A DNA stretch of 64,000 bases from Candidatus Magasanikbacteria bacterium CG1_02_41_34 (lineage in GTDB: Bacteria; Patescibacteriota; Patescibacteriia; Magasanikbacterales; UBA922), in contig MNVD01000025.1 in NCBI GenBank assembly GCA_001871445.1, positions 8,808 to 72,807 on the forward strand, read 5' to 3'. The translations under genes and the position numbers were made by a program. This document shows positions 532 through 60,306 of this stretch, piece after piece. The first letter of the stretch is position 1. Each line of letters starts with the position of its first letter. The notes under the pieces are model-generated. The model did not search any database and was not told the DNA's origin. It saw only the letters and a program-made list of their open reading frames with translations.

Positions 532-918
532 ATGGAGGAAAATATTACTCTCAAAGATGTATTCACTGCGGTGCAAGGCGTCAAGGATGAAGTGCGGGGT
601 CTGAAAAACGAGGTGCAAGGTGTGAAGGATGAGGTGCAAGGTGTGAAAGATGAAGTACAAGGTGTGAAGGATAAGGTGCAAAACCTCAAAGAACTTGTGC
701 TTGCAAACCAAGAAAGTATTGAATTTATCAAAGACAACGCTGTTACCAAAGATGAAATGAAAGAAGAACTTACGAAGGTTCGAAACGAAATCACAGAACA
801 TGTTGACGGTTTTGTTGGATTATACAAAGATCACGATACAGAGCTCGCCACTGTTATCTTACGTCAGCAAAGACAAGAGAAAAAGATAAAGAAAATTATG
901 GTGCATGTTGGTATGTAG
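532..918 (+). CDS. Hypothetical coiled-coil protein with heptad VKDEVQG tandem repeats
   Basis: ORF 490-918. The likely start is the MEENITLK ATG at 532. It contains 5-6 tandem 7-aa units (VKDEVRG/LKNEVQG/VKDEVQG...), then a K/E-rich helical tail. A terminator follows. Confidence 0.5.
   Translation: MEENITLKDVFTAVQGVKDEVRGLKNEVQGVKDEVQGVKDEVQGVKDKVQNLKELVLANQESIEFIKDNAVTKDEMKEELTKVRNEITEHVDGFVGLYKDHDTELATVILRQQRQEKKIKKIMVHVGM
571..696 (+). repeat. Six tandem 21-bp coding repeats (unit gtgcaaggtgtgaaggatgag)
   Basis: Directly visible tandem 21-nt units encoding V(K/Q)DEVQG heptads inside the 532-918 ORF. Confidence 0.8.
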
Positions 919-980: not shown

Positions 981-1082
981 TCATCAGCCAGCCATATCGT
1001 CGTGAAGAAACAGTACAGAGGAGAGAGACTTCCACGAATGGAAGGAATCTGTTCCGTGCCTTTACAGATGTGACTGACTTGT

Positions 1083-1195
1083 GAGAGAGTAAACGACCGA
1101 AGTGCCCATGAAGGGCGATTCGATCGCCTTTGAAACAATCATGAAAACATCATTGCTTTAAAGGATCGACGAGGAGTGCTGCTCGTCGTCGATCA
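1083..1195. repeat. Bipartite structured repeat, copy 1. Module A is 1083-1143. Module B is the hairpin at 1164-1195.
   Basis: Module A: gagagagtaaacgaccgaagtgcccatgaagggcgattcgatcgcctttgaaacaat. Module B: gatcgacgaggagtgctgctcgtcgtcgatca. Both modules recur at 5224-5404 with about 90% identity. They lie 3' of the minus-strand high-GC gene. Confidence 0.65.
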
Positions 1196-1282
1196 TGCAA
1201 AATTACAAAGAACAATTGAGTGCATTGTGTCAGCTCCTGGCAGAGCACTCAGCGAGGCCAGGAACTTTTTTGCGTGGGTCTA

Positions 1283-2842
1283 TCAGCGGCTGACGCTGCC
1301 GTGCCCGTCGCACGCGGTGCACGAGAGATCGAGCGTGCCGCTGGCCAGGAAGGCCTTAGCGGTGCTCTTGTCCACGCGCACGGTGTTGCCGCAGCCACAC
1401 CGGAAGCACCGCCCGCCGATGTCGGTGAATGTAGTGACCTTTCCGACGATGACCTGCGGCTCGGGCTCCGTGGGGGCTTTCACCACCTCCACGACTTGTG
1501 GAACCTCTTCCACGCGCTCCCGCCAGCGCATGTGGAGGTTCCACCCACCGTACTTCTGAAAGGCCAGAAGTTCGAGGGCCCCACCGGCACAAGCGACCCG
1601 GTAGATAACCTGCGCCTCCGCGTTATCACACCGCTCCCCGAAGGGCCGAGAATGATTCACGCGAGACACGTACCGGCGGTCGTCATAGGCCTGGTACATC
1701 TGGACGCCATTCCGACCGGCGATTCGGCCGTACGTCCACGACGCTGCGTCATACGACGAGACGCTTTTCAGGTCATCCGGCAGCTGGCTATGCGCCAGCA
1801 TGATGGCCTGAAAACGGACGGCTTCGTCGAGCAGACGCTGTTGCTCGAGGATGGCTGCTGCCTGTCGCTCGACCTCCTTTTTCTTGGCGCTCTCAGCCCT
1901 CTCCGAGGAGAGATCAACAAACGTGTGGAGCCTCGCGAGATCGGCGAGAGTGTACAAGAAGCTCTCGGAGAACTGAGCATCTGGTGCCTTCGCACAGAGG
2001 CAATCCTCGTGATCATAAAAAACGATCCCGAGCACCTCCATGCGAGGCTTGAGCGCCTCGAACCCTGCCTCGAATTCCTTCTTTTCGGTATTCTTTGCTT
2101 CCTCTTCGAGCACCTCGGCCTCGGTCCTGTCGACCTCGGCTTCGGTGTACTCGCGAAGATCCCAGATGGACTCTCCATAGTGGAACGTCTCATCTTCGAG
2201 GGTGATCCCCTTGAGCCCGATCGCCATGCGACGCTCGGACATGGACAGGAGACGTGGCTCGAAGACCGGCTTTTGCGTGGCATTCGCCGTACGCTGCCGA
2301 GCAGCCTCTGCTTGCTCCTCCGCCTCACGAGCTTTGCGCGCTTCGATCTCGCGCCAAGCCCCTTCGACGAAGGTCGCATCAAACGTCCCGACTTCTCGCC
2401 CTGTCTCCCTATCGAATTTGGAGGGCACTCGTGTTGCCACGAGCGTCCGATCCTTGTTCGGTCGGGAGATGAGGTAGCACTCTACGTTCTTCGCCCTTCC
2501 GGCGGTGTGGACGTAGAGCACATCCCCGGGCAACAAGGCCCAGAGCGACTGTTGAAGCTCGCCGATCTGCTCCCACGAGCCGGCGAGTGTTTTTTTTACT
2601 CGCTCCCACAGAAGCTTCGGCTGCCCAGCACGTCGCTGAGCGGTCGCCCCTCCCATGGTCGTGCCGTGCGGTCCGTACGGCCGCACGTACACCACCACGG
2701 CACCCTGCGGTGCTGTGGCCGCGACCTCCCGTGCCACCTGAGGCACGGCAGTCTTGGCGAAATCCGCAACGAAAAATTCTCCAATCCCCTGCTCGGGGAC
2801 AAGGAGGGTCTCAACGGTCTTGTTGGTGTTCTGGTTCGCCAT
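1283..2842 (-). CDS. Hypothetical protein, high-GC ORF (about 519 aa). It is coiled-coil and E/R-rich with a C-terminal Cys cluster (CFRCGCG...CTACDGHG).
   Basis: ORF 1283-2890. The best start is the MANQNTNKT ATG at 2842, preceded by GGAGAGGAGG. GC is about 63% with GC3 strongly biased. The overlapping plus-strand ORF 1220-3001 is judged to be an antisense artefact of the high GC. Confidence 0.5.
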   Translation of the reverse strand: MANQNTNKTVETLLVPEQGIGEFFVADFAKTAVPQVAREVAATAPQGAVVVYVRPYGPHGTTMGGATAQRRAGQPKLLWERVKKTLAGSWEQIGELQQSLWALLPGDVLYVHTAGRAKNVECYLISRPNKDRTLVATRVPSKFDRETGREVGTFDATFVEGAWREIEARKAREAEEQAEAARQRTANATQKPVFEPRLLSMSERRMAIGLKGITLEDETFHYGESIWDLREYTEAEVDRTEAEVLEEEAKNTEKKEFEAGFEALKPRMEVLGIVFYDHEDCLCAKAPDAQFSESFLYTLADLARLHTFVDLSSERAESAKKKEVERQAAAILEQQRLLDEAVRFQAIMLAHSQLPDDLKSVSSYDAASWTYGRIAGRNGVQMYQAYDDRRYVSRVNHSRPFGERCDNAEAQVIYRVACAGGALELLAFQKYGGWNLHMRWRERVEEVPQVVEVVKAPTEPEPQVIVGKVTTFTDIGGRCFRCGCGNTVRVDKSTAKAFLASGTLDLSCTACDGHGSVSR

Positions 2843-3138
2843 GATATCCTCCTCTCCCGTACGCGGGAAGGTGATTTCTCTCTCACACATACCCCATGGC
2901 AGGAAGTACAGAGAAAATGTATTTGTATTGCAGTGGTGTGTGAGGTATCCACTACAATAGGAAAATCCCTTTTAAACCTTCAATCTTTATTAAAAATTTG
3001 AAAGGGATGGCGAGAGTGAATTAAATTCAACTCTCGCCAAAAAAAAACGAATGCAAAATTTCAAAGAACAAAGTGGAGTTGTTTCTTTATCCTCCCCTTC
3101 GTACTCCATGACGAAGGAGAGCAGATTTTAGGAGAAGT

Positions 3139-4971
3139 TTAGTTGCCCGGCTTCTCCTCGGGCTTGAGCGCCCCGCCGGCCACCTCGTCGAGCTTGCCGC
3201 CGTTGTTGCGGACGGCGATGCCCGAGTCGAGGTGGAGCTCCTCCCCCTCACCAATCAACGCGACCACCATGGTCTCGTTATGCTTGTTGGTGGAGGCCGA
3301 GAGGCTCCAGGCCGCCGCGGTCCCGGTGGACCGGTGCGAGATGGAGCTGCCGCTGCTGCGACGGCTCATCTGCACCCAGGAGGCGCCGCGCTTCCACGCG
3401 ATCATCCCCTGGCGGTTGCCCTCGTCCCACACCAGGTGCCCGCCCTTGTCCTTCTTTGACACGAGCCGCGCAGGGAGGTGCCAAACGCTCTCGGGGAACG
3501 GGACGTCCTCCGGGTCGGGGAGCTGCATGAGCAACTCGATCCGGTCCCGCAAGCGGTCGTCCACCGAGACGAACATCTGATCCCAGCTCGCACCACCCGG
3601 CTGCACGCGGAAGTAGAACCGTCCGAAACCCTTCTGCGGGTGACGGCCGAAGTTGGCCAGCCACGCGCGGGCGTCGAACGTCCCCTTCTCGCACCGCAGG
3701 GCGGTCTCGAGAGCGGAGAAGTTCACAGAGCTGTAGAGCGTCGCCTGGAGCTTGGTGCCGTTCCACTCCTTGACGGAGCGGATGGTCACCCAGCCGTCAG
3801 GATGCTGCGGGATCGTGGAGATGAGGTAGCCGGGCAGGACCGACCCCGCTCCCACTCGCCGGAAGCCCTCGCCGTTCCACTTGTACGTCTCGAGCTCGAT
3901 GATCTCACCCTTGTGGGTGATGACCAGCTTGCCCTTGATGTACGCGTGGGACTCGTCTGGCGTCTCCGGCAGCACCAGGAGGAGCTGCTCGCGGAAGAGC
4001 GGCCGGTAGTCGTACGTGTCACCGTACGTCTGGACCGCTTCGCGCGCGCACCGGATGAGGAACTCGATGTCCTCCTGCTCCTCGAGCCACTCCGTCGTCG
4101 GCGCCACCTTGGCCTGCGAGGGCTTCAGGTGTCCGTCGACGACGAGCTGCCAGGAGAACTTGGACTCACCGGCGATGTAGTCCGGCGAGCTGGCCGAGTT
4201 GAAACCCGTCCAGATCGTGCGCCCGAGCTGCTCGTACACCGCCGTGAGCGCGGCGTAGTCGCCGGTCTCGTGGAAGGCGTCGATGGCCTTGCGGCTCATC
4301 TCGACTTCATGCTGACGCTGAGCCGTCTCGCGCTTCTCCTGGACTCGGCGGCTGATCTCGTACGAGTCGAACCGCGCCGCCTTGAGCAGCTTCTCCGGCT
4401 TGTCGGCGGCCCAGGCGTCGAGGCGATCGCGGTAGGAATCCCCATCCTCGCCGTCCTCGATCTCGGGCCAGACCAGCTTGTCCGCCTGGAGCTGCGTCTT
4501 GCGCTGCTCCTCGGCGAACTGCTCAGCCGCGCCACTGGTGATGGCGTCCAGGACCTCTCTGGCCTGGCCACAGAACGTCGGGCAGCCCTTGCGGCCACCG
4601 AGATTCGGCAGCCGACTGCGCCAGCTCTCGGCCTGCGACCGCGGCATGGCCTCGATCTGCCGCTCGATGAGGTTGTCGAACGCGGTGCGAGCCCGGTTCG
4701 TCCCCTCCTGAGCGCGGTCGAGAGCCGCGACGAGCCGCTCCTTGCCGATGAGCTCGATGGCCGCCGCGGCCCACTCGAGCGCCGACTTCTCGAACTCGTC
4801 CATCGTGCGGGTCGACGGCGTGATGCCGCGCCCGCTTCCGTAGCTCTCCTCGTCACTGTGGGCGACCACCGCGGGGGTGGCGCCCTGGTTGTTGTCGATC
4901 TCGATGGCCGCCTTGACGGCCTGCTCCGGGGACACGAGTCCCTGCTTCAGGAGCTGCTCCAGGATGCTCAT
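3139..4971 (-). CDS. Hypothetical protein, high-GC ORF (610 aa)
   Basis: Long minus-strand ORF with protein-like composition (MSILEQLLKQGLVSPEQAVKAAIEID...). GC is about 64%. I recognised no domain. The plus-strand ORF 3478-5076 is an antisense artefact. Confidence 0.5.
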   Translation of the reverse strand: MSILEQLLKQGLVSPEQAVKAAIEIDNNQGATPAVVAHSDEESYGSGRGITPSTRTMDEFEKSALEWAAAAIELIGKERLVAALDRAQEGTNRARTAFDNLIERQIEAMPRSQAESWRSRLPNLGGRKGCPTFCGQAREVLDAITSGAAEQFAEEQRKTQLQADKLVWPEIEDGEDGDSYRDRLDAWAADKPEKLLKAARFDSYEISRRVQEKRETAQRQHEVEMSRKAIDAFHETGDYAALTAVYEQLGRTIWTGFNSASSPDYIAGESKFSWQLVVDGHLKPSQAKVAPTTEWLEEQEDIEFLIRCAREAVQTYGDTYDYRPLFREQLLLVLPETPDESHAYIKGKLVITHKGEIIELETYKWNGEGFRRVGAGSVLPGYLISTIPQHPDGWVTIRSVKEWNGTKLQATLYSSVNFSALETALRCEKGTFDARAWLANFGRHPQKGFGRFYFRVQPGGASWDQMFVSVDDRLRDRIELLMQLPDPEDVPFPESVWHLPARLVSKKDKGGHLVWDEGNRQGMIAWKRGASWVQMSRRSSGSSISHRSTGTAAAWSLSASTNKHNETMVVALIGEGEELHLDSGIAVRNNGGKLDEVAGGALKPEEKPGN

Positions 4972-5094
4972 TCCATTTCTCCAGGGCTTTCGCCCACATG
5001 CTCTTTCCCATTTGGAATGACCGAATGGTCTTCAGACGATGGTACGACGGTACCGTGTCTTATCCATCAGGATTGAGCAGATTCTAGGCACATC

Positions 5095-5158
5095 ACTGTG
5101 CCCTTCTTCCAATTTTTTTAACGCAAAAAAACTCCTGAAGGGCACAGTATTATTTTTT
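5095..5158. promoter_or_regulatory. Nested palindrome upstream of the 3139-4971 gene, which also forms a plus-strand terminator-like hairpin
   Basis: A 12-bp perfect inverted repeat, actgtgcccttc (5095-5106) against gaagggcacagt (5137-5148). It encloses an inner T7-aacgc-A7 palindrome and is followed by a T-run at 5151-5158. Confidence 0.4.
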
Positions 5159-5223
5159 ATTATGTAAAGAACATAATATATTCCCAATTCTAAAATCTGA
5201 ATTCATAATTCTTCATTCGAACT

Positions 5224-5404
5224 GAGAGAGTAAGCAACCGAAGTGCCCACGCGGGGCGATTCGGTCGCCTTTGGAAAAATGATTTTATGAAATCATTTCT
5301 CGGAAGGAACATCATATATACACATATTTTGTAATGAACCGTTGCCAAACCACAGAGTGATTTGGGCATCTTGGTCGACGAGGAGTGCTACTCGTCGTCG
5401 ATCA
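5224..5404. repeat. Bipartite structured repeat, copy 2. Module A is 5224-5285. Module B is the hairpin at 5373-5404.
   Basis: Module A: gagagagtaagcaaccgaagtgcccacgcggggcgattcggtcgcctttggaaaaat. Module B: ggtcgacgaggagtgctactcgtcgtcgatca. It lies 3' of the minus-strand high-GC gene 5454-5972. It contains small hairpins (ggcgattcgRtcgcc) and a larger imperfect hairpin. Confidence 0.65.
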
Positions 5405-5453
5405 AGTGCAATTTTGCCACAGTCTTCACCGCTGGGGCTCGGTTATATGTCGG

Positions 5454-5972
5454 CTAGAGAGGGAGGTACTCGTCCACCTCCTCGAAGCGGACCGGGGCGT
5501 GATTCACGCGCTCCGGGAACTTCGAGAGGATGGCCTCATCGTGGACGCGAACACCCACGACGTAATACACCCCGCGCTCTGCGCCGAACAGCTTCACGTG
5601 GTGGCGCCGAGCCACCGGGTTCACCGGCAACCGGGCCTCCTTCTGCGTCACGAACTTCCCCGTAAGCACCTGACCAAGCCATTGCTTGGTAAACTGCTCG
5701 AGGTCGTTCCCCGCGACACCGCGGGCCGCCGACCACACGCCCGCCACGTCCAGCCAATTGCTCCCATCGTGGGAGCAGACCGCCGTGTACCTGGGCAACA
5801 TCCACCACCAGAGGGCGGGGAGGCCGAAGAACAAGGCGGCGAGGCCCACGACCGAGTCGAGGCCGCTCTGGTCCCAGACGCCGTCGGCGGCGACGAGGAT
5901 GTCGTGCCCGAAGGCGGCGGCGATGGCGATGACGACGGCGCTGGCGATGACGACGGCGATGAGCTTCTTCAT
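5454..5972 (-). CDS. Hypothetical membrane-anchored protein, high-GC ORF (172 aa)
   Basis: MKKLIAVVIASAVVIAIAAAFGHD... is a hydrophobic N-terminal anchor with a W-rich region. The RBS is TAGGAGGT. GC is about 64%. Confidence 0.5.
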   Translation of the reverse strand: MKKLIAVVIASAVVIAIAAAFGHDILVAADGVWDQSGLDSVVGLAALFFGLPALWWWMLPRYTAVCSHDGSNWLDVAGVWSAARGVAGNDLEQFTKQWLGQVLTGKFVTQKEARLPVNPVARRHHVKLFGAERGVYYVVGVRVHDEAILSKFPERVNHAPVRFEEVDEYLPL

Positions 5973-6019
5973 GATGACCTCCTAAAAGGCAAAGCAAACT
6001 CACCAACATGGCGAGTTGC

Positions 6020-6069
6020 GAGAAGCAATCAAGTGACAGTACTCATTACTGTCAATTTCATTGCTTCTC
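6020..6069. promoter_or_regulatory. Nested palindrome upstream of the high-GC gene 5454-5972
   Basis: Outer 10-bp inverted repeat gagaagcaat (6020-6029) against attgcttctc (6060-6069). Inner 8-bp inverted repeat tgacagta/tactgtca (6034-6054). Confidence 0.35.
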
Positions 6070-7363
6070 ACAACTATTTTTTCTAGTCAATTTAAATGAA
6101 CAACTTTCAAAAAAGTTTTTTCTCCAAAACTCTCGGAAAGCTAGGCGCGCAGACCATCTCAACCATCACGAAAAGATGATCTGTCACCATAGCCTTCTGA
6201 AAATTCTGCTGCTGCGAATTTCTTTCATGCACTATCTAACTAAATATATTTTCTCAAGTGCAAATGCGAAGAAGTAACTTCCAAAATGGGATTATTTTAT
6301 ATGTACACCCCGTGCCGTCACACTCCGCACAGTCATTCCAAAACAGTGGTAATGAATGTTTACACGTTGTACACAATGTTCGAATACTCATACACACGTA
6401 TTTACTTGTCTACTTACTACTTGTTACTTAATGAACATTCATCGCAATATATGCAAATGATGTCGCGAGTGTAAGAAAAATAAATTGGATCATACCGTTG
6501 TAAATAGTTTTCTGTATTTTTTTTGTTTGAAAGAACAATCATCAGTCTTGTTTTGCCAAGCAAAACATATTCTTCAATCTTTCTCTGCGTAATACAGAGT
6601 GTTCCCACTTTCATACATCTTGCGATGTATGAAGGAGGAACGCACTCGGTACTACAGTTTCTGATGAGACTGTAGTCTGATCGAGAAGGAGTGCCTTACC
6701 AAATTTCTTTAGCAATCACTATCAACTCCCATCAGCATTCTCCGTAGCCAAAGCGTTGGAGAAGAAAACCAGATGTGTATCTCACATCGCCGGAAAGAAT
6801 CTCTCTCCATAAGTCACGTGGCGTGAGCTTTACGGGACCTTTCCTTTTCTCGGGCGATGCGGGATCAGACACTTGTAAAGATTTGTATGCGTCAGTAGCA
6901 GACTACAAACTTCCGCATCCTTGTTCGTCTCACAACAAGCGAGAGACGAACTCAGACGTTTTGGAAGGAACCTTGCTCCGACAGATATGGATGGCAGTAT
7001 GTGGTCGAACGATGAATCGGTGGTGTACTCTAGAAAGATGTACTGTGCCGTGTCGTTCTTTGTCCGCCTTGGGCGGATTATGACCTCTCTCCGTGTCATC
7101 CATGTCTGTAGAAACAAAAACACTCTCTTGGTGGAGAGAGTATTGAAAATTTTTAATTTCCTTGGGCTCTCTCCTTCCCTTGGATATCCGTATTTACATT
7201 ATAAGGTGGGGGTCAATCTCGCTTCCCCTTTTCTCATGTTGACGGAATACTATATCACGCAATGCGATATTTGTCAATACTGAGTGGATAGTTGTTGTGG
7301 ACATATCCATTTTTTTGCTTAATTAAAGCCTTTTTTTGTACAAAATAACCTGTCCAGATATAC

Positions 7364-7392
7364 TTGACAAATAATGCACGGTGTGCTATAAT
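7364..7392 (+). promoter_or_regulatory. Consensus sigma70 promoter (TTGACA, 17 nt, TATAAT)
   Basis: ttgaca at 7364-7369, an exact 17-nt spacer, tataat at 7387-7392. It would drive a leader containing the structured repeat at 7487-7640 and then the TrmB-family gene. Confidence 0.55.
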
Positions 7393-7486
7393 ACTGCTAT
7401 ATTAAGCCAAAAAATCCGTCTTTTCATTCCAAACAATTTAGCAGTATACACGAAAAAATGGCTTATTTTAGAGAAAAAATAAAGTT

Positions 7487-7640
7487 CTCCCCCTATCAAG
7501 GGGGGTTGGAGGGGGTCTTCGAAGTCAACATACCCTGAATTGCACGTCTTACGTACTAAAGACCCCTGCCCGCAATGCTTTCCCGATTCAATCGGGATTG
7601 CAGGCGGGCCGCCTCAATCACCCCCTTAGTAAGGGGTTTA
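7487..7640 (+). repeat. Multi-hairpin palindromic intergenic repeat, copy A (possible structured RNA leader)
   Basis: Hairpin ctccccctatcaagggggg. A 46-nt core cccctgcccgcaatgctttcccgattcaatcgggattgcaggcggg at 7564-7609, identical to the reverse complement of 15839-15884. Hairpin cccccttagtaagggg. Confidence 0.6.
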
Positions 7641-7773
7641 AGGCCCTAAAACTTATCCTCAAATAACTTTTTACTCACATTTTTCCCTTATTTTAGCCAA
7701 ATTCCCCATTTATCCCGCCTTTGGCAGGGATCCCGTCCAGGCGAAGCACTGGCGGGACTATTTACCAACCCAT

Positions 7774-8556
7774 ATGAACCAAACAACCCTCGACACCCTA
7801 AAAAAAGCAGGCATGGATGAAAAAACTGCCGAAATGTACCTTATTTTAGCAGAAAATGGGGAGAGCACCGTGCCTCAGATCCTAGAGCTTACACAGCTTT
7901 CTAGGGCCACCGTGTATGACGTGCTTCCACAGCTCCTCGCAGATGACTTTATTGAATATAGAAAGGATGGCCGAGTGGCCTACTATAGAGCCGTCCACCC
8001 CACAAAGCTCCTCGAGCTTCTGGATCAAAAAAAACGCCAACTCTCACTGCTCGAAGAAGAAATGACAGAGACTGTCCGCCAAGTAGTTGGAAGTTTTCAG
8101 CTGGCAAATAGTAAACCAGGAGTGAGGTTTTTTGAGGGAATTGAAGGCATTATGGAAGTCATAAATGATTCCCTGAGTGCAAAAGGAGACATCCTCACGT
8201 ATCTTGATGTCGAAGCAACTCAAAAGTATATATCAGGGCAAAATAAAGAGTATGTCAATAAACGTGTGGAGCTAGGCATTCACAAAAGAATGATCGCTCC
8301 CAACACACCAGCAACCAGAGAACGATACAGAAATTACAATCCAAATATTGAAGTGCGTCTCATGCCGCCAGATATAAAACCTTTTGAAACGAGTGTACAG
8401 ATGTACAACGACACAATTTCTTTTTCGTCACTCGATGAGGAAAAAATGATTGGAGTTCTTATTGAAGACAAGAAGATAGTCCAGCTACACAAATCTATTT
8501 TTGAATTCGTCTGGAAATCATTGCCAAAACTCACGTATTCTGACTCTGAGACCTAG
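7774..8556 (+). CDS. TrmB-family (sugar-specific-type) HTH transcriptional regulator
   Basis: The N-terminal winged helix (LILAENGESTVPQILELTQLSRATVYDVLPQLLADDFIEY) plus the C-terminal effector domain match TrmB-like regulator architecture. A paralog is at 59581-60306. Confidence 0.65.
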   Translation: MNQTTLDTLKKAGMDEKTAEMYLILAENGESTVPQILELTQLSRATVYDVLPQLLADDFIEYRKDGRVAYYRAVHPTKLLELLDQKKRQLSLLEEEMTETVRQVVGSFQLANSKPGVRFFEGIEGIMEVINDSLSAKGDILTYLDVEATQKYISGQNKEYVNKRVELGIHKRMIAPNTPATRERYRNYNPNIEVRLMPPDIKPFETSVQMYNDTISFSSLDEEKMIGVLIEDKKIVQLHKSIFEFVWKSLPKLTYSDSET

Positions 8557-15309: not shown

Positions 15310-15810
15310 CTACTCTTTCATCAAAAGTCCCGCTGTCAACGCCACACCCAGTGCATCAGCTGCATCATCCGGCGTTGGTCTTTTTTTGAGTTCTAGTTGT
15401 ATACGAATCATTTCTTGGAGTTGTCCTTTTTCTGCACGACCATACCCAACAATCGCTTGTTTCATTTGAAGTGGCGTAACTTCCTGCACAGGAATGCCGG
15501 CTTCGTGCAAGGTAAGAAGAATAACGCCACGAGCTTCACTTACTTTCATGCCTGTTGTTACATTTTTTGCAAAAAATAATTGTTCTATGCCTGCCTTTTC
15601 TGGCTGATATTTTTTTATTATTTCCAAAAGATCGTGTTTTAATTCCACAAGTCGCTCGGCAAAATCCGCTTTTGTATTTGTCTCGATACATCCATGTGCC
15701 ACATGTACCCACGCCCCACGTTCACCATCAATAACACCATAGCCAATACGTCCATAGCCGGGGTCAATTCCTAATATACGTTGTGATTTTTGAATTGACA
15801 TAAAAAACAT
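15310..15810 (-). CDS. ruvC: Holliday junction resolvase RuvC
   Basis: ILGIDPGYGRIGYGVIDGE... through the C-terminal DAADALGVAL is the RuvC catalytic signature. The RBS AAGGAGG sits 5 nt before the ATG. Confidence 0.9.
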   Translation of the reverse strand: MFFMSIQKSQRILGIDPGYGRIGYGVIDGERGAWVHVAHGCIETNTKADFAERLVELKHDLLEIIKKYQPEKAGIEQLFFAKNVTTGMKVSEARGVILLTLHEAGIPVQEVTPLQMKQAIVGYGRAEKGQLQEMIRIQLELKKRPTPDDAADALGVALTAGLLMKE

Positions 15811-15960
15811 ATTCCCCTCCTTACCAAGGAGGGGTTAGCCCGCCTGCAATCCCGATTGAATCGGGAAAGCATTGCGGGCAGGGGGAGGTTTCGCATTATC
15901 AGTGTTCTTCTTTCTGCACAACCCCACCTCAATCCTCCCCTTCGTAAGGGGAGGAAGCTT
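15811..15960 (-). repeat. Multi-hairpin palindromic intergenic repeat, copy B, between yebC and ruvC
   Basis: Core 15839-15884 is the reverse complement of 7564-7609 (46/46). Flanking hairpins are cctccccttcgtaaggggagg and cccctccttggtaaggagggg. The second hairpin contains the ruvC Shine-Dalgarno. Confidence 0.6.
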
Positions 15961-15962
15961 TG

Positions 15963-16700
15963 TTATTTTTCATTTGTATATATCTCATTCACATCGTCGA
16001 GCTCATCAAGTGCGTCGTAGAGTTTTTCCATTTTTTCTGCAGTGTCAGCATCCACAGCGACTTCTTCTTTTGCCACCCACTTGAGTCCTGCATCTTCTGG
16101 TTCTGTAATACCACATGTTTTCAATGCTTCAACAACAGATTGAAACTTATCCATTGGACAACGCGCTTCGAGATGTTCATCAAATTCAAGAATATCCGAT
16201 GCACCAGCATCTATCAAAGCAAGATCAAAATCATCTCGTACAGTATTGTTTGTCGCCAATTGATTATTGCTTATGGCAATAACACCAAGTCGTTCAAACT
16301 GCCATTGCACACTGCCTGGCCCTCCCACAGACCCATAATGTTTTGTGAATGCATTTTTTACTTCTGAAACCGTTCTATTTTTATTGTCTGTCAACGTCTC
16401 TACAAGAACCGCTATACCACCCGGTCCATATCCCTCGTAAATAATTTCTTGAATTTCCTCGCCATCCTTCAATTCACCTGTCCCTTTTTTAATAGATCGA
16501 TCAATATTATCTTTTGGAACATTGCCTGCTTTTGCTTTTTCTATCGCAAGACGAAGCGAAAAATTCATTTCAGAGTCTCCTCCATCTTCTTTTGCTGCCA
16601 TCGTGATGGCCTTGCACAATTTCGTAAACAAATTCCCCCGCTGTGCATCTGCCTTTCCTTTTTTGTGTTGAATTTTACTCCATCTTGAATGTCCTGACAT
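15963..16700 (-). CDS. yebC: YebC/PmpR-family DNA-binding transcriptional regulator
   Basis: MSGHSRWSKIQHKKGKADAQRGNLFTKL... is the YebC signature. It has the conserved yebC-ruvC synteny. Confidence 0.9.
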   Translation of the reverse strand: MSGHSRWSKIQHKKGKADAQRGNLFTKLCKAITMAAKEDGGDSEMNFSLRLAIEKAKAGNVPKDNIDRSIKKGTGELKDGEEIQEIIYEGYGPGGIAVLVETLTDNKNRTVSEVKNAFTKHYGSVGGPGSVQWQFERLGVIAISNNQLATNNTVRDDFDLALIDAGASDILEFDEHLEARCPMDKFQSVVEALKTCGITEPEDAGLKWVAKEEVAVDADTAEKMEKLYDALDELDDVNEIYTNEK

Positions 16701-16861
16701 AGATATTCATATAACATATAACATGCCATGCTGGCAGGTAGGTAGCCTATAACAATTACAGAACTGCACGTATATTATATTACAGTAAATTGAAAGGAAA
16801 TCAAGATCTTGCATAAAAAAACAAAAATCTCAGAAATCCATAAAACCCAAACAAAAAAACA

Positions 16862-16897
16862 GCCCCGATTCAATCGAGACTGCTTTTTGCTACTTGA
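16862..16897 (-). terminator. Intrinsic terminator of rpoC
   Basis: Minus-strand sense cagtctcgattgaatcggggctg plus a T7 run. The stem is a degenerate copy of the cccgattgaatcggg core. Confidence 0.5.
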
Positions 16898-24400: not shown

Positions 24401-24727
24401 TCAGGTATCAGACACGTCGTCGAGAAGAAGGTAGATTCGCTCCGTGGTATTATTATAAACCAACGGTATTTTTCTCTTCCCTTAGGGAAAAAAGTAATAC
24501 CTTTGGCTCATTTGACGACTGCTACAATATACGTTGAAATAAGGGAAAAGTCAAGTACTGAACACGTGTATAACTATTTGTCAAGAACTGCACATTTTTG
24601 GCTTATTTTAGCAAAATAGTGTTTTTCTTACTAGGGCGACGTGGGGTGGTTATCCCTAGAGTTATCCACATTTCATGGGACATATAGCATGTTGCAGATA
24701 ACAAAACAGCTTTTGCACAGCCTTAGC

Positions 24728-24891: not shown

Positions 24892-26106
24892 ATGAACCAC
24901 CGCATCGACGCTCCCCGCGAGCACTCGTTCCTCGTCCGCTTCCTCCTGGTTCTCCCGTTCGGCGTGCTCCTGAGCACGCAGATCGGGTGCGCCGACGACG
25001 CGCAGCAGCCCGTCGTGACCGACGACTCCTCCATCACCGAGCGCCTCGATGCGCTCGAGGATCAGGTGGCGGGGCTCCAAGCGCAGGCCGATCGGGTCGA
25101 TCAGCTCGAGACCCGTGTGCACAGCCTCGAGCTGCAGCACCTGGTCGCAGTGGCCGACCAGCAGCGCCTCCAGCTGGAGCTGGACATGGCGAAGAGCCAG
25201 CTCGACCCGTTCGTGAAGACCTTCACTTTCGTCGGTGCCGAGACGCCGGATCCGTACGACACGATGGTCTACGTGAACGGATCGCTCAACCTCGGCATCA
25301 ACGACCTGCTCGTCCGCAACATCGGGGCGAGCAACGTCAACAGCGACCAGGCCACCTTCGGCGAAAGCTGGACACTCGGAGCACAGCACGTAGAGTCCTT
25401 GGCCTTCAAGCAGGACAACTACGAACGGTTCATGTACGGCTTCGACCTGGAGTGGATCCACCAGATCAGCCCGTTCACCCTGTCCAGTTACGACGAGAAC
25501 GGGGAGAGCGTGATCACGTTCACCAGCGGCCACGTCCGCGTGAACAACCTCCGCGCTTACAATCAGCTGCGCGGGGACACGTTGTACGTCGATACCTATG
25601 GCGCCATGCCCGAGCTCAACGTCTGGAATCGTCTCGTGACAGGGAACCTCGAGGCCTTCAGTGTCGAGGTCAAGGAGCTCCTGAACGTGCTCAACGAGGC
25701 CTCGTTTGGCTTCAACGACACGACGGGACCAGCGGTGACGATCACTCGAAATGGCCTCGCTAGCGGCATGCTGATCAGCTCACCAAGCCAGGTCAGTTAT
25801 TCTGAGAAGGCATGGCTCTTTCGCGCCAGCCAGCTCGTCTCGTTCGGCCAGTCCAACGGCGACGGAACCTGGAGCATGATGCTTGAGGACGCCAAGCTCG
25901 TAGCACGCAGAGGCATGTCAGTCTCGAACGAGAATGATAACTGGTTCAACCCAGGTGCCCTGGTGGTGCATGGAGACAGCAAGTTCAAACAGGCCAGCGA
26001 CGGCACGCCGGCAGATGTCACGATCGAGGGCAGCCTCAACGTGACCGGGGCGGCCGACACCGGCTGCTTGCAGACCGAGGTCGATTCCTGCATCGACCTG
26101 CAGTAG
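24892..26106 (+). CDS. Hypothetical secreted lipoprotein, high-GC ORF (404 aa)
   Basis: Signal peptide with a lipobox-like LSTQIGC. N-terminal coiled coil (LDALEDQVAGLQAQADRVDQLETRVHSLELQ). GC is about 64% and GC3 about 95%. The RBS is GAGAGG. Confidence 0.55.
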   Translation: MNHRIDAPREHSFLVRFLLVLPFGVLLSTQIGCADDAQQPVVTDDSSITERLDALEDQVAGLQAQADRVDQLETRVHSLELQHLVAVADQQRLQLELDMAKSQLDPFVKTFTFVGAETPDPYDTMVYVNGSLNLGINDLLVRNIGASNVNSDQATFGESWTLGAQHVESLAFKQDNYERFMYGFDLEWIHQISPFTLSSYDENGESVITFTSGHVRVNNLRAYNQLRGDTLYVDTYGAMPELNVWNRLVTGNLEAFSVEVKELLNVLNEASFGFNDTTGPAVTITRNGLASGMLISSPSQVSYSEKAWLFRASQLVSFGQSNGDGTWSMMLEDAKLVARRGMSVSNENDNWFNPGALVVHGDSKFKQASDGTPADVTIEGSLNVTGAADTGCLQTEVDSCIDLQ

Positions 26107-35403: not shown

Positions 35404-35530
35404 AAAAAGTATTATCTTAGATATATCAGTATATCAAATTTTCAAAGAGCTTTCCAATTGCGAAAATGCGTAGAAAAAGGTAGAGTGTATATGATTCCCT
35501 CCTACAAAGGAGGAAAATTCTTCTCTTTCT

Positions 35531-59580: not shown

Positions 59581-60306
59581 TCAACCTACAATATTCCACA
59601 TTACATCAAAAACCGCTTTGAACACATCCCTCATAACCGGAATTTCAATCAAAACTGCCATGGAACTAAGCTCGGAACTGACTATGAGAATTTTATCATC
59701 AAAAATATCAATAGTACTTTTAAAACTATATTGTTCTGATAAATAATGTACATGTCGTAGCAAAGAAGGATCTTCAGGATTTAATAGTTTTGACTCATCT
59801 GTCAAAATAAGTTGAGTGTGTATGTTATTTCTTGCACGATCAATCCTATATTGATGAAACCACTCACTATCTGCACCTTCCCATCCTTGTGCACTACCTA
59901 TAATGACATACTGCTTATCTCTATATTCGTAAAGAATACCTGTATAAAATTCCTTCAATTCATCCAGTGTCTCTATAAATCTCAATCCTGGTGTTTGCAT
60001 TTCCTTTTTTTCAAGCGATTGGAGCTGAGGAAGAATAGCATATAGATTATCGAGTTTTTTGCTATACAACGCAGCAAGTCTATTTGGCTTCTGAGCATAA
60101 AAATATCGCTTGTTTTTTCGAAAGTATACATGTACGTACCCTTTTGATGCCATTTGTTTGAGAGTATGATAAACAGTTGTACGCTTCACACCAGTACTTT
60201 TTGCTACTGCGCTTGCTTGGGACCCTCCCAGTTGTAAAAGTGACAAATAAATGTCAACTTCTGGCTCTGTAAAGCCTAGTTGTTTTAAAATTGCTATGTT
60301 TTCCAC
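59581..60306 (-). CDS. TrmB-family HTH transcriptional regulator (paralog of 7774-8556)
   Basis: N-terminal wHTH (IYLSLLQLGGSQASAVAKSTGVKRTTVYHTLKQMASKGYV) plus a C-terminal domain. It is divergently oriented to the high-GC gene at 60470. Confidence 0.65.
   Translation of the reverse strand: MENIAILKQLGFTEPEVDIYLSLLQLGGSQASAVAKSTGVKRTTVYHTLKQMASKGYVHVYFRKNKRYFYAQKPNRLAALYSKKLDNLYAILPQLQSLEKKEMQTPGLRFIETLDELKEFYTGILYEYRDKQYVIIGSAQGWEGADSEWFHQYRIDRARNNIHTQLILTDESKLLNPEDPSLLRHVHYLSEQYSFKSTIDIFDDKILIVSSELSSMAVLIEIPVMRDVFKAVFDVMWNIVG

Follow-up and report, generated by a model that had tools for sequence, protein, structure and literature searches.

In well-studied bacteria, small palindromic repeats influence how operons are expressed, how genomes rearrange and how well they assemble. 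The REP sequences of Enterobacteria, their BIME mosaics and the REPINs are imperfect palindromes of ∼35–45 nt that lie in intergenic transcribed spacers in either orientation, and the recognition of REP and REPIN hairpins by a Y1 transposase (RAYT) is their proposed driver. REPs occur in tens to hundreds of copies per genome. BOX elements of Streptococcus pneumoniae (boxA-boxB-boxC) are intergenic and modular, with modules that are present, absent or reordered, and they form stable hairpins with incidental effects on neighbouring genes. Hairpin MITEs, such as the Correia/NEMIS elements of Neisseria, ERIC/IRU and RUP, measure 100–170 nt, carry terminal inverted repeats and are palindromic over their whole length; they are polymorphic for presence and absence, have operon spacers and 5′ UTRs as insertion sites and are co-transcribed with their neighbours. 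The PATEs derived from IS200/IS605 are hairpin-based and Y1-dependent, with neither classical inverted ends nor duplications. In a full-text literature search, no description of REP- or MITE-like repeats in CPR/Patescibacteria was found.

The window analysed here is a stretch of 64,000 nt that contains two related structured elements, copies A and B. They belong to one small family in Candidatus Magasanikbacteria (CPR/Patescibacteria), an uncultured groundwater bacterium. We consider it probable that this family is a low-copy, lineage-restricted, nested mobile palindromic repeat, similar to REP/BIME or MITE sequences, and that it does not represent a dedicated riboregulator of TrmB. Like the REP palindromes, the element holds a short imperfect palindrome and occupies intergenic transcribed spacers in either orientation. 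In contrast to REPs, it is present in only a handful of copies, no REP-type GTAG was seen at the 5′ foot of its core, and the core is nested in a larger palindromic scaffold that also exists alone. Given its copy number, the GTAG result and the demonstrated RAYT that a REP would have, the element is therefore filed as a bacterial intergenic palindromic repeat and not as a REP. It shares with BOX the modularity, the intergenic location, the stable hairpins and the incidental neighbour effects; however, the two are unrelated in sequence, BOX modules follow one another linearly and are not hairpins nested in hairpins, and the BOX copy number is far higher. The element resembles hairpin MITEs in the features listed above for them, but no target-site duplication was identified, its termini are small hairpins, and no known IS has the matching ends of a parent element.

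The unit shared by the two copies is a core of 47 nt, and positions 7563–7609 (copy A) are the exact reverse complement of positions 15838–15884 (copy B; 100% identity). The original prediction had reported a near-palindromic core of 46 nt, which is present and one base longer. Each core is set within a module of ∼150 nt that comprises four hairpins. In copy A, these are an outer small hairpin S1 (CTCCCCCTatcaAGGGGGG, 7488–7506), which reads CTCCCCCTgatAGGGGGAG in the assemblies L037, L038, L040 and L041 (fetched loci are numbered with the prefix L); a variable hairpin H2 (GGGGGTCTTCGAAG...CTAAAGACCCC, 7511–7566), whose nearest counterpart is the H2 of a core-less scaffold in L056; the invariant core hairpin on the plus strand in ‘r’ orientation (7563–7609), with its inner hairpin CCCGATTCAATCGGG at 7582–7596; and, at 7610–7640, the linker CGCCTCAATCA followed by the small hairpin S2 (CCCCCTTagtAAGGGG, 7622–7636). 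Copy B consists of S1 (CCCCTCCTTaccAAGGAGGGG, 15814–15834) with a truncated linker TTA (together 15811–15837), the plus-strand core in ‘f’ orientation (15838–15884), H2 (GGGGGAGGTTTCGCA...TGCACAACCCC, 15881–15926), and a terminal segment (15925–15962) of the linker CACCTCAAT, S2 (CCTCCCCTTcgtAAGGGGAGG, 15934–15954) and AAGCTTTG, which abuts the yebC stop codon. The H2 sequences of the two copies are unrelated. Within the core, an asymmetric internal loop or bulge (GCTTT) separates the outer stem from the inner stem, and the core borders read ...GGTG/GCCCGCC on one side and GCGGGCA/GGGG on the other. The elements carry terminal inverted repeats, in that S1 plus linker resembles the reverse complement of linker plus S2, and whole scaffolds are 64–73% self-complementary.

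These sequences are rare in the window. The motif CCCGATTSAATCGGG was found three times with at most two mismatches (7582, 15851 and 16864), against 0.07 matches expected, and none of 100 shuffles reached three. Small pyrimidine/purine hairpins lie at both copies (7489–7504, 7622–7636, 15814–15834 and 15934–15954); five occur in the 64 kb, against ∼0.1 expected from simulations, and four of the five are within the elements. The small flanking hairpins described in the original prediction are thus present at each copy and nearly confined to the elements. The sole exception, at 35498–35513, is a lone CCCTCC/GGAGGG hairpin; a polysaccharide-biosynthesis (flippase-like) gene starts ∼18 nt downstream of it.

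Copy A is located in the leader of a TrmB-family regulator gene (7774–8556, plus strand; Pfam TrmB, E = 1.7e-11). It begins 95 nt past a TG-extended sigma-70-type promoter, TTGACA-17-TATAAT (7364–7392, plus strand), which lies outside the repeat and matches the consensus at 12 of 12 positions, and it lies 134 nt upstream of the gene; both the exact promoter and the TrmB assignment had been claimed from the sequence and were borne out. Copy B is located between yebC (15963–16700) and ruvC (15310–15810), both on the minus strand, and on this minus-strand transcript its core has the same reading as that of copy A. The YebC protein of the window is 100% identical to a protein of groundwater Candidatus Magasanikbacteria MAGs. 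A second TrmB-family regulator gene in the window (59581–60306, minus strand) has no element nearby. A further motif, GGCTTATTT(T/G)AGC, brackets copy A and occurs in the window at 7458–7470, 7686–7700, 24598–24612 and ∼24740, as well as upstream of the TrmB orthologues in L063 and L065. In several lineages it is found repeatedly close to promoters and ahead of TrmB-family genes, and it is a candidate operator.

RNA folding of both copies, which had been proposed as a check, gave one common layout of four hairpins (S1, H2, core and S2), with −68.7 kcal/mol (z −3.6) for copy A and −79.0 kcal/mol (z −7.0) for copy B. Neither copy has a U-tract or T-run directly after the core, unlike an intrinsic terminator, and a loose terminator pattern was matched only by the outer small hairpins of copy B. 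No promoter was evident inside the element. The Rfam search suggested in the original prediction returned no known RNA family: the whole window at the gathering threshold gave only two tRNAs, and positions 7300–7800 and 5100–5450 gave no match even at E ≤ 1.

The small hairpins vary by double changes from C-G to T-A, with both sides changed in six of nine pairs, and 91.5% of the small-hairpin cells are paired, a value that none of 500 shuffles reached. These double changes keep the pairing, and the hairpin potential is therefore maintained; as they are strand-symmetric, they fit DNA as well as RNA. The core, by comparison, showed zero substitutions in six copies, while the scaffolds were 62–87% identical. 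Since the core is invariant it offers no covariation, which was seen only in the small hairpins. Nucleotide divergence between the sister lineages is ∼10% in rpoC and ∼24% in yebC-ruvC, and by our own arithmetic zero changes in 43 nt would have a p of roughly 0.01 or less under vertical neutral inheritance. Such inheritance of the core is therefore unlikely, and the remaining explanations are recent spread, gene conversion and selection for the specific sequence.

To define the family, a loose core pattern was scanned over 185,579 species-representative (GTDB) genomes and a tighter pattern over the JGI metagenomes; both scans used exact patterns that diverged cores escape, and MAG contigs break at repeats. 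The loose pattern identified 30 loci, one of which was a true copy (L012, in a Magasanikbacteria MAG), while the other 29, in other phyla, were hairpins or terminators without relation to the family. The tighter pattern identified four loci in the metagenomes, and the core pattern had no matches in viral contigs. A viral sequence on two contigs (L068 and L069) was rejected as a member, as it presents only a C7/G7 hairpin followed by TTAGGGGGGG, in an S-hairpin-plus-linker pattern. Six distinct full copies with identical cores were obtained, namely copies A and B, L012 (identical to L031), L032, L033 and L034a, and in their alignment columns 39–83 are invariant while the flanks differ. BLAST across the fetched loci revealed two further elements: L034b (L034 2380–2516), with a variant core, and the core-less scaffold at L056 19603–19764. 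The family sample therefore comprises eight elements, with two copies in the 64 kb of the window; no more copies were found in ∼0.7 Mb of related loci, where MAG fragmentation may conceal some.

All eight elements are intergenic. L032 follows a GIY-YIG gene, L033 lies between an integrase gene and glyS, L034a between convergent rarA-like and flavoprotein genes, and L034b upstream of the same rarA-like gene. A heptamer tandem repeat, (CTAACAC)n, adjoins the L033 element downstream (∼6980–7060), upstream of glyS. With respect to flanking transcription, two of the six full-core copies are in ‘r’ orientation, three are in ‘f’ orientation and one is between convergent genes. The original prediction had stated that each copy faces its downstream gene in the same sense, which holds for the window but not for the family. 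The genome-wide search that it had proposed recovered copies in relatives and in groundwater metagenomes, but the mixed orientations are not the pattern of a specific regulator.

Orthologous spacers in relatives provide insight into the history of the insertions. RpoC amino acid identity to the window is 98% for L012/L031 (the sister lineage), 93.5% for L046 and L056, and 88% for L058. In the species of the window, the yebC-ruvC spacer with the element measures 162 nt, and nine assemblies are identical there. In relatives without the element, the two genes overlap (L056) or are separated by 12 nt (L060), and the spacers of 47 nt (L045–L054, with an unrelated palindrome) and 105 nt (L058) are unrelated to the element. 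The palindrome of L045–L055 (ACATTCGAATTACGAATG...CATTCGAATTCGTACATTCG, for example L045 10739–10785) coincides with the breaks of contigs L052 and L055. It suggests a different repeat family, and that this spacer is a hotspot of palindromic insertion. In L012/L031, the same yebC-ruvC spacer holds the whole element, termini included, inverted relative to the yebC to ruvC direction. From the sequences, this difference in orientation could equally well reflect an inversion in situ or an independent insertion.

The TrmB orthologues were recognised by a shared convergent neighbour, a GNAT-like gene of 765–781 aa (L061, L063 and L065), and the element is absent from all three of these orthologous leaders. 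The leader in L065 is ∼35 nt after its own TTGACA/TATAAT promoter, and L061 has none. The one in L063, which also has a TTGACA promoter, is ∼330 nt long (L063 5000–6000) and is filled by a different AT-rich inverted repeat (AATTAGTAAATGGTAAACAGTAATTG...CAATTACTAATTACAATTTAC); because this leader holds a different repeat, the TrmB leader appears to gain repeats repeatedly. A third site is the SPOUT-GNAT spacer, which carries the core-less scaffold in L056, while the orthologous spacer in L045 is empty and measures 26 nt (139 of 156 residues of the SPOUT proteins are identical). No clear target-site duplication was observed, and the element flanks are A/T runs. These comparisons identify the elements as insertions with respect to the sister lineages; they occupy unrelated spacers and have no fixed orientation.

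The scaffold is quasi-palindromic and ∼110–160 nt long, and the invariant core within it measures 43–47 nt. Its order is a small CCYCC/GGRGG hairpin, a linker (TTAGGGTG-like), the variable H2, a complementary linker and a second small hairpin. Scaffolds were compared after removal of the core. Those of copy B and L033 were 87% identical on the same strand and 65% when reversed, and those of L012 and L034b were 85% and 68% identical, respectively; both pairs combine a member whose core precedes H2 on the 5′ side (‘f’) with one whose core follows it on the 3′ side (‘r’). The core end GCGGGCA always lies against the GGGG foot of H2, and therefore the two placements are mirror images on the strands of a palindromic target. 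Further exchanges were seen at other levels of the element. The L056 locus presents the scaffold alone, with an H2 stem that resembles copy A; L034b retains the exact outer core stems, with the inner hairpin replaced by CGCAACGCG; and at L034 517–540 the inner hairpin occurs alone, inside a different stem. Because of these three cases, at least three nesting levels can be distinguished. BIMEs similarly combine palindromes with other motifs in mosaics, here paralleled by the core on either side of H2, the core-less scaffold and the swapped inner hairpin. Either the core inserts separately, or one arm was lost from an inverted doublet, core(f)-H2-core(r), in an ancestor; the history of the core fits both. 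A REPIN-like ancestor of the latter kind would explain the core on either side of H2; no such doublet was found among the eight elements.

A transposase gene was found next to copy A in some strains. Same-species assemblies are of two types at this locus: the window, L035, L036 and L037 run on into the promoter region, while L038, L040 and L041 diverge directly after ...GGGGGAGAGCTTTATT (matching window ∼7480) into new sequence. In L038 (19224–19357) and L040 (14340–14500), this new flank has its own hairpin, GACAG-N14-CTGTC (GACAGGGGAGCTTGCTCGGCTGTC), and an ORF that begins MSEHIKKSHNKTQILYHLVCPVKYRRKVLIKGVP / MSEHIKKSHNKTQILYHLVCPVKYRRKVL ∼60 nt beyond copy A. All three divergent contigs stop a short way past the junction: L038 and L040 end inside the ORF, and L041 shares the junction and ends before it. 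Over its 34 aa, the ORF fragment has a Pfam match to Y1_Tnp (E = 0.007), and it shares 70% identity with a PF01797 protein whose sequence continues to a DKDHVHF (HUH-type) motif. A search for the full gene with the 34-aa fragment (padded to 42 aa) yielded one truncated homologue of 73 aa, on a 950-nt scaffold containing Ns. In the strains with this flank, the consensus TrmB promoter would be displaced. L037 mixes the two types, with the S1 variant of the second type and the flank of the first, and the L043 contig ends inside the core loop; like the divergence of L038, L040 and L041 at the end of copy A, these are signs of dispersed repeats, and of an IS200-like element in more than one copy.

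No Y1 gene was detected in the window by tblastn with Y1 transposases, and of the ∼60 ORFs of the window, the 30 that were compared with Pfam encode no transposase or recombinase. The adjacency to copy A is circumstantial. The GACAG...CTGTC hairpin of the adjacent insertion is unrelated to any element module, and the transposase may therefore belong to an IS that happened to land at the element boundary. A RAYT flanked by repeats is a hallmark of REPs, while the Y1 ORF beside copy A looks IS200-like by its N-terminus (YHLVCPVKYRRK). PATEs are comparable in that an IS200-like tnpA abuts copy A in the strain variants; they differ in that the tnpA-side hairpin is unrelated to the element modules and that no conserved target tetranucleotide was established.

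The elements would spread at the DNA level; an HUH Y1 (IS200-like) transposase would probably act in trans on their single-stranded hairpins, a model that corresponds to proposals for REP/RAYT and IS200/IS605-derived elements. The core could be mobile on its own, or it could be what is left of two inverted cores. Once transcribed, the hairpins would be passive stable structures in the TrmB 5′ UTR and the yebC-ruvC intercistronic region, where they may alter mRNA stability or partly block read-through, and any effect on TrmB would be incidental. A further reading, which we regard as unlikely, is that the 43–47-nt core is itself a mobile or enzyme-recognised unit, a single bulged hairpin inserted by a Y1 (IS200-like) transposase at the GGGG foot of another hairpin on either strand, in a REP/RAYT-like manner in CPR, or else a hairpin bound by a protein through its sequence and under strong selection. 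If the former is true, the core would be among the smallest mobile DNA units known, a hairpin within a hairpin, and an independently mobilised 43-nt hairpin would offer a compact model for hairpin-directed single-strand transposition. Nested hairpin repeats thus occur even in CPR episymbiont genomes of roughly 1 Mb, where they move, or are rebuilt, between sister lineages, break metagenome assemblies and adjoin an IS200-like transposase. Annotation should treat the long structured leader of TrmB as an insertion and not as a regulatory RNA.

The strict conservation of the core can also be read as the mark of a structural module selected by the host, in which the invariant core, as a site that a host protein recognises by its sequence and binds or processes (for example an RNase III-type site, an inter-cistron mRNA stabiliser or a DNA-binding site), is kept by purifying selection and the spread is secondary. 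We judge this explanation unlikely. The lack of core substitutions in six copies beside adjoining modules of 62–87% identity, at the sister-lineage divergence of rpoC and yebC-ruvC given above, would be expected under it, as would the position of all copies in transcribed spacers and the compensatory changes that keep the small hairpins paired. However, the element lies in both orientations with respect to transcription, which flips the asymmetric bulge; at the same loci, close relatives do without the element and have nothing in its place; one copy is between convergent genes; and recent spread or gene conversion would account equally well for the invariance. A dedicated cis-regulatory RNA (a riboswitch, attenuator or riboregulator) in the TrmB leader, with the second copy regulating ruvC, is very improbable. 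The position between a perfect promoter and TrmB, the shared sense of the window copies and the strong predicted structure made it attractive, but the leaders of three TrmB orthologue groups lack the element, the sister lineage carries it inverted at yebC-ruvC, and other copies follow a GIY-YIG gene or lie between an integrase gene and glyS or between convergent genes. Together with the absence of core covariation, of a U-tract after the core and of an Rfam match, these comparative sequence data have largely refuted this reading. Of the riboregulator, REP-like element and small ncRNA originally offered, the REP-like one is supported, while the specific riboregulator is left unsupported because orthologous leaders and spacers are empty, both orientations occur, a sister copy is inverted, the core is invariant and Rfam gave no match. 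Mixed orientations and missing covariation had been named in the original prediction as the pattern that speaks against a specific regulator, and this pattern is found across the family.

The inversion of the whole element between sister lineages at one spacer, and a tyrosine recombinase gene ∼190 nt from the L033 copy, bring to mind an inverton, in which the terminal small hairpins would serve as inverted repeats for a site-specific recombinase and flips would alter the expression of flanking genes. This is exceedingly improbable, given one orientation and one sequence at yebC-ruvC in nine independent assemblies of the window species, terminal hairpins that are not identical inverted repeats, no promoter evident inside the element and no recombinase gene among the 30 window ORFs scanned (of about 60). 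It is scarcely credible that the copies are chance palindromes or ordinary terminator hairpins with no family relationship. Stems of the CCCGATTSAATCGGG type do act as terminators in many unrelated phyla, and the rpoC terminator of the window has the same stem; on the other hand, shuffling predicts only 0.07 matches, and the 47-nt identity extends over the window and four other loci that share a common multi-module layout. Other element types were rejected: an integron attC site (no GTTRRRY/RYYYAAC motifs), a CRISPR repeat (the copies are single and dispersed) and a DNA uptake sequence (too long and too rare). Sequestration of a Shine-Dalgarno sequence by the GGAGG arms was also rejected, with a start-codon spacing of 5 to 16 nt or the start codon absent.

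Two further hairpins of the window had been connected with the repeat. The intrinsic terminator of rpoC (16854–16888, minus strand), flanked by A- and T-runs, resembles only the inner hairpin, with 14 of 15 nt in common. It had been taken for a degenerate core, but it is an ordinary terminator and not a family member, because L056 has the orthologous terminator hairpin (CAGTCCCGATTATATCGGGGCTG) and neither an outer core nor a scaffold is present. A solo S-like hairpin between convergent high-GC genes (3087–3121) shares 15 exact nt (ATCCTCCCCTTCGTA) with S2 of copy B. From this identity, it is probably a degenerate or remodelled relative of the small hairpins, and the relationship claimed for it is accordingly kept as probable.

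The window also contains high-GC islands at 1000–6000 (55–68% GC) and 24892–26106 (61%), against ∼40% elsewhere. Their ORFs (1220–3001, plus strand; 3139–4971, minus strand; 5385–6086, plus strand; 24892–26106, plus strand) had no Pfam match and may be foreign or unusual genes. Two of these ORFs are preceded by paralogous two-part leaders (1082–1204 and 5223–5413) that are 85–87% identical and include the hairpin GACGAGGAGTGCTGCTCGTC; the 5223–5413 copy had no Rfam match at E ≤ 1, and the pair may represent an undescribed leader motif. Finally, a 21-nt tandem repeat of at least five units lies inside an ORF at window positions 570–695, where it encodes a repeated heptapeptide-like motif.
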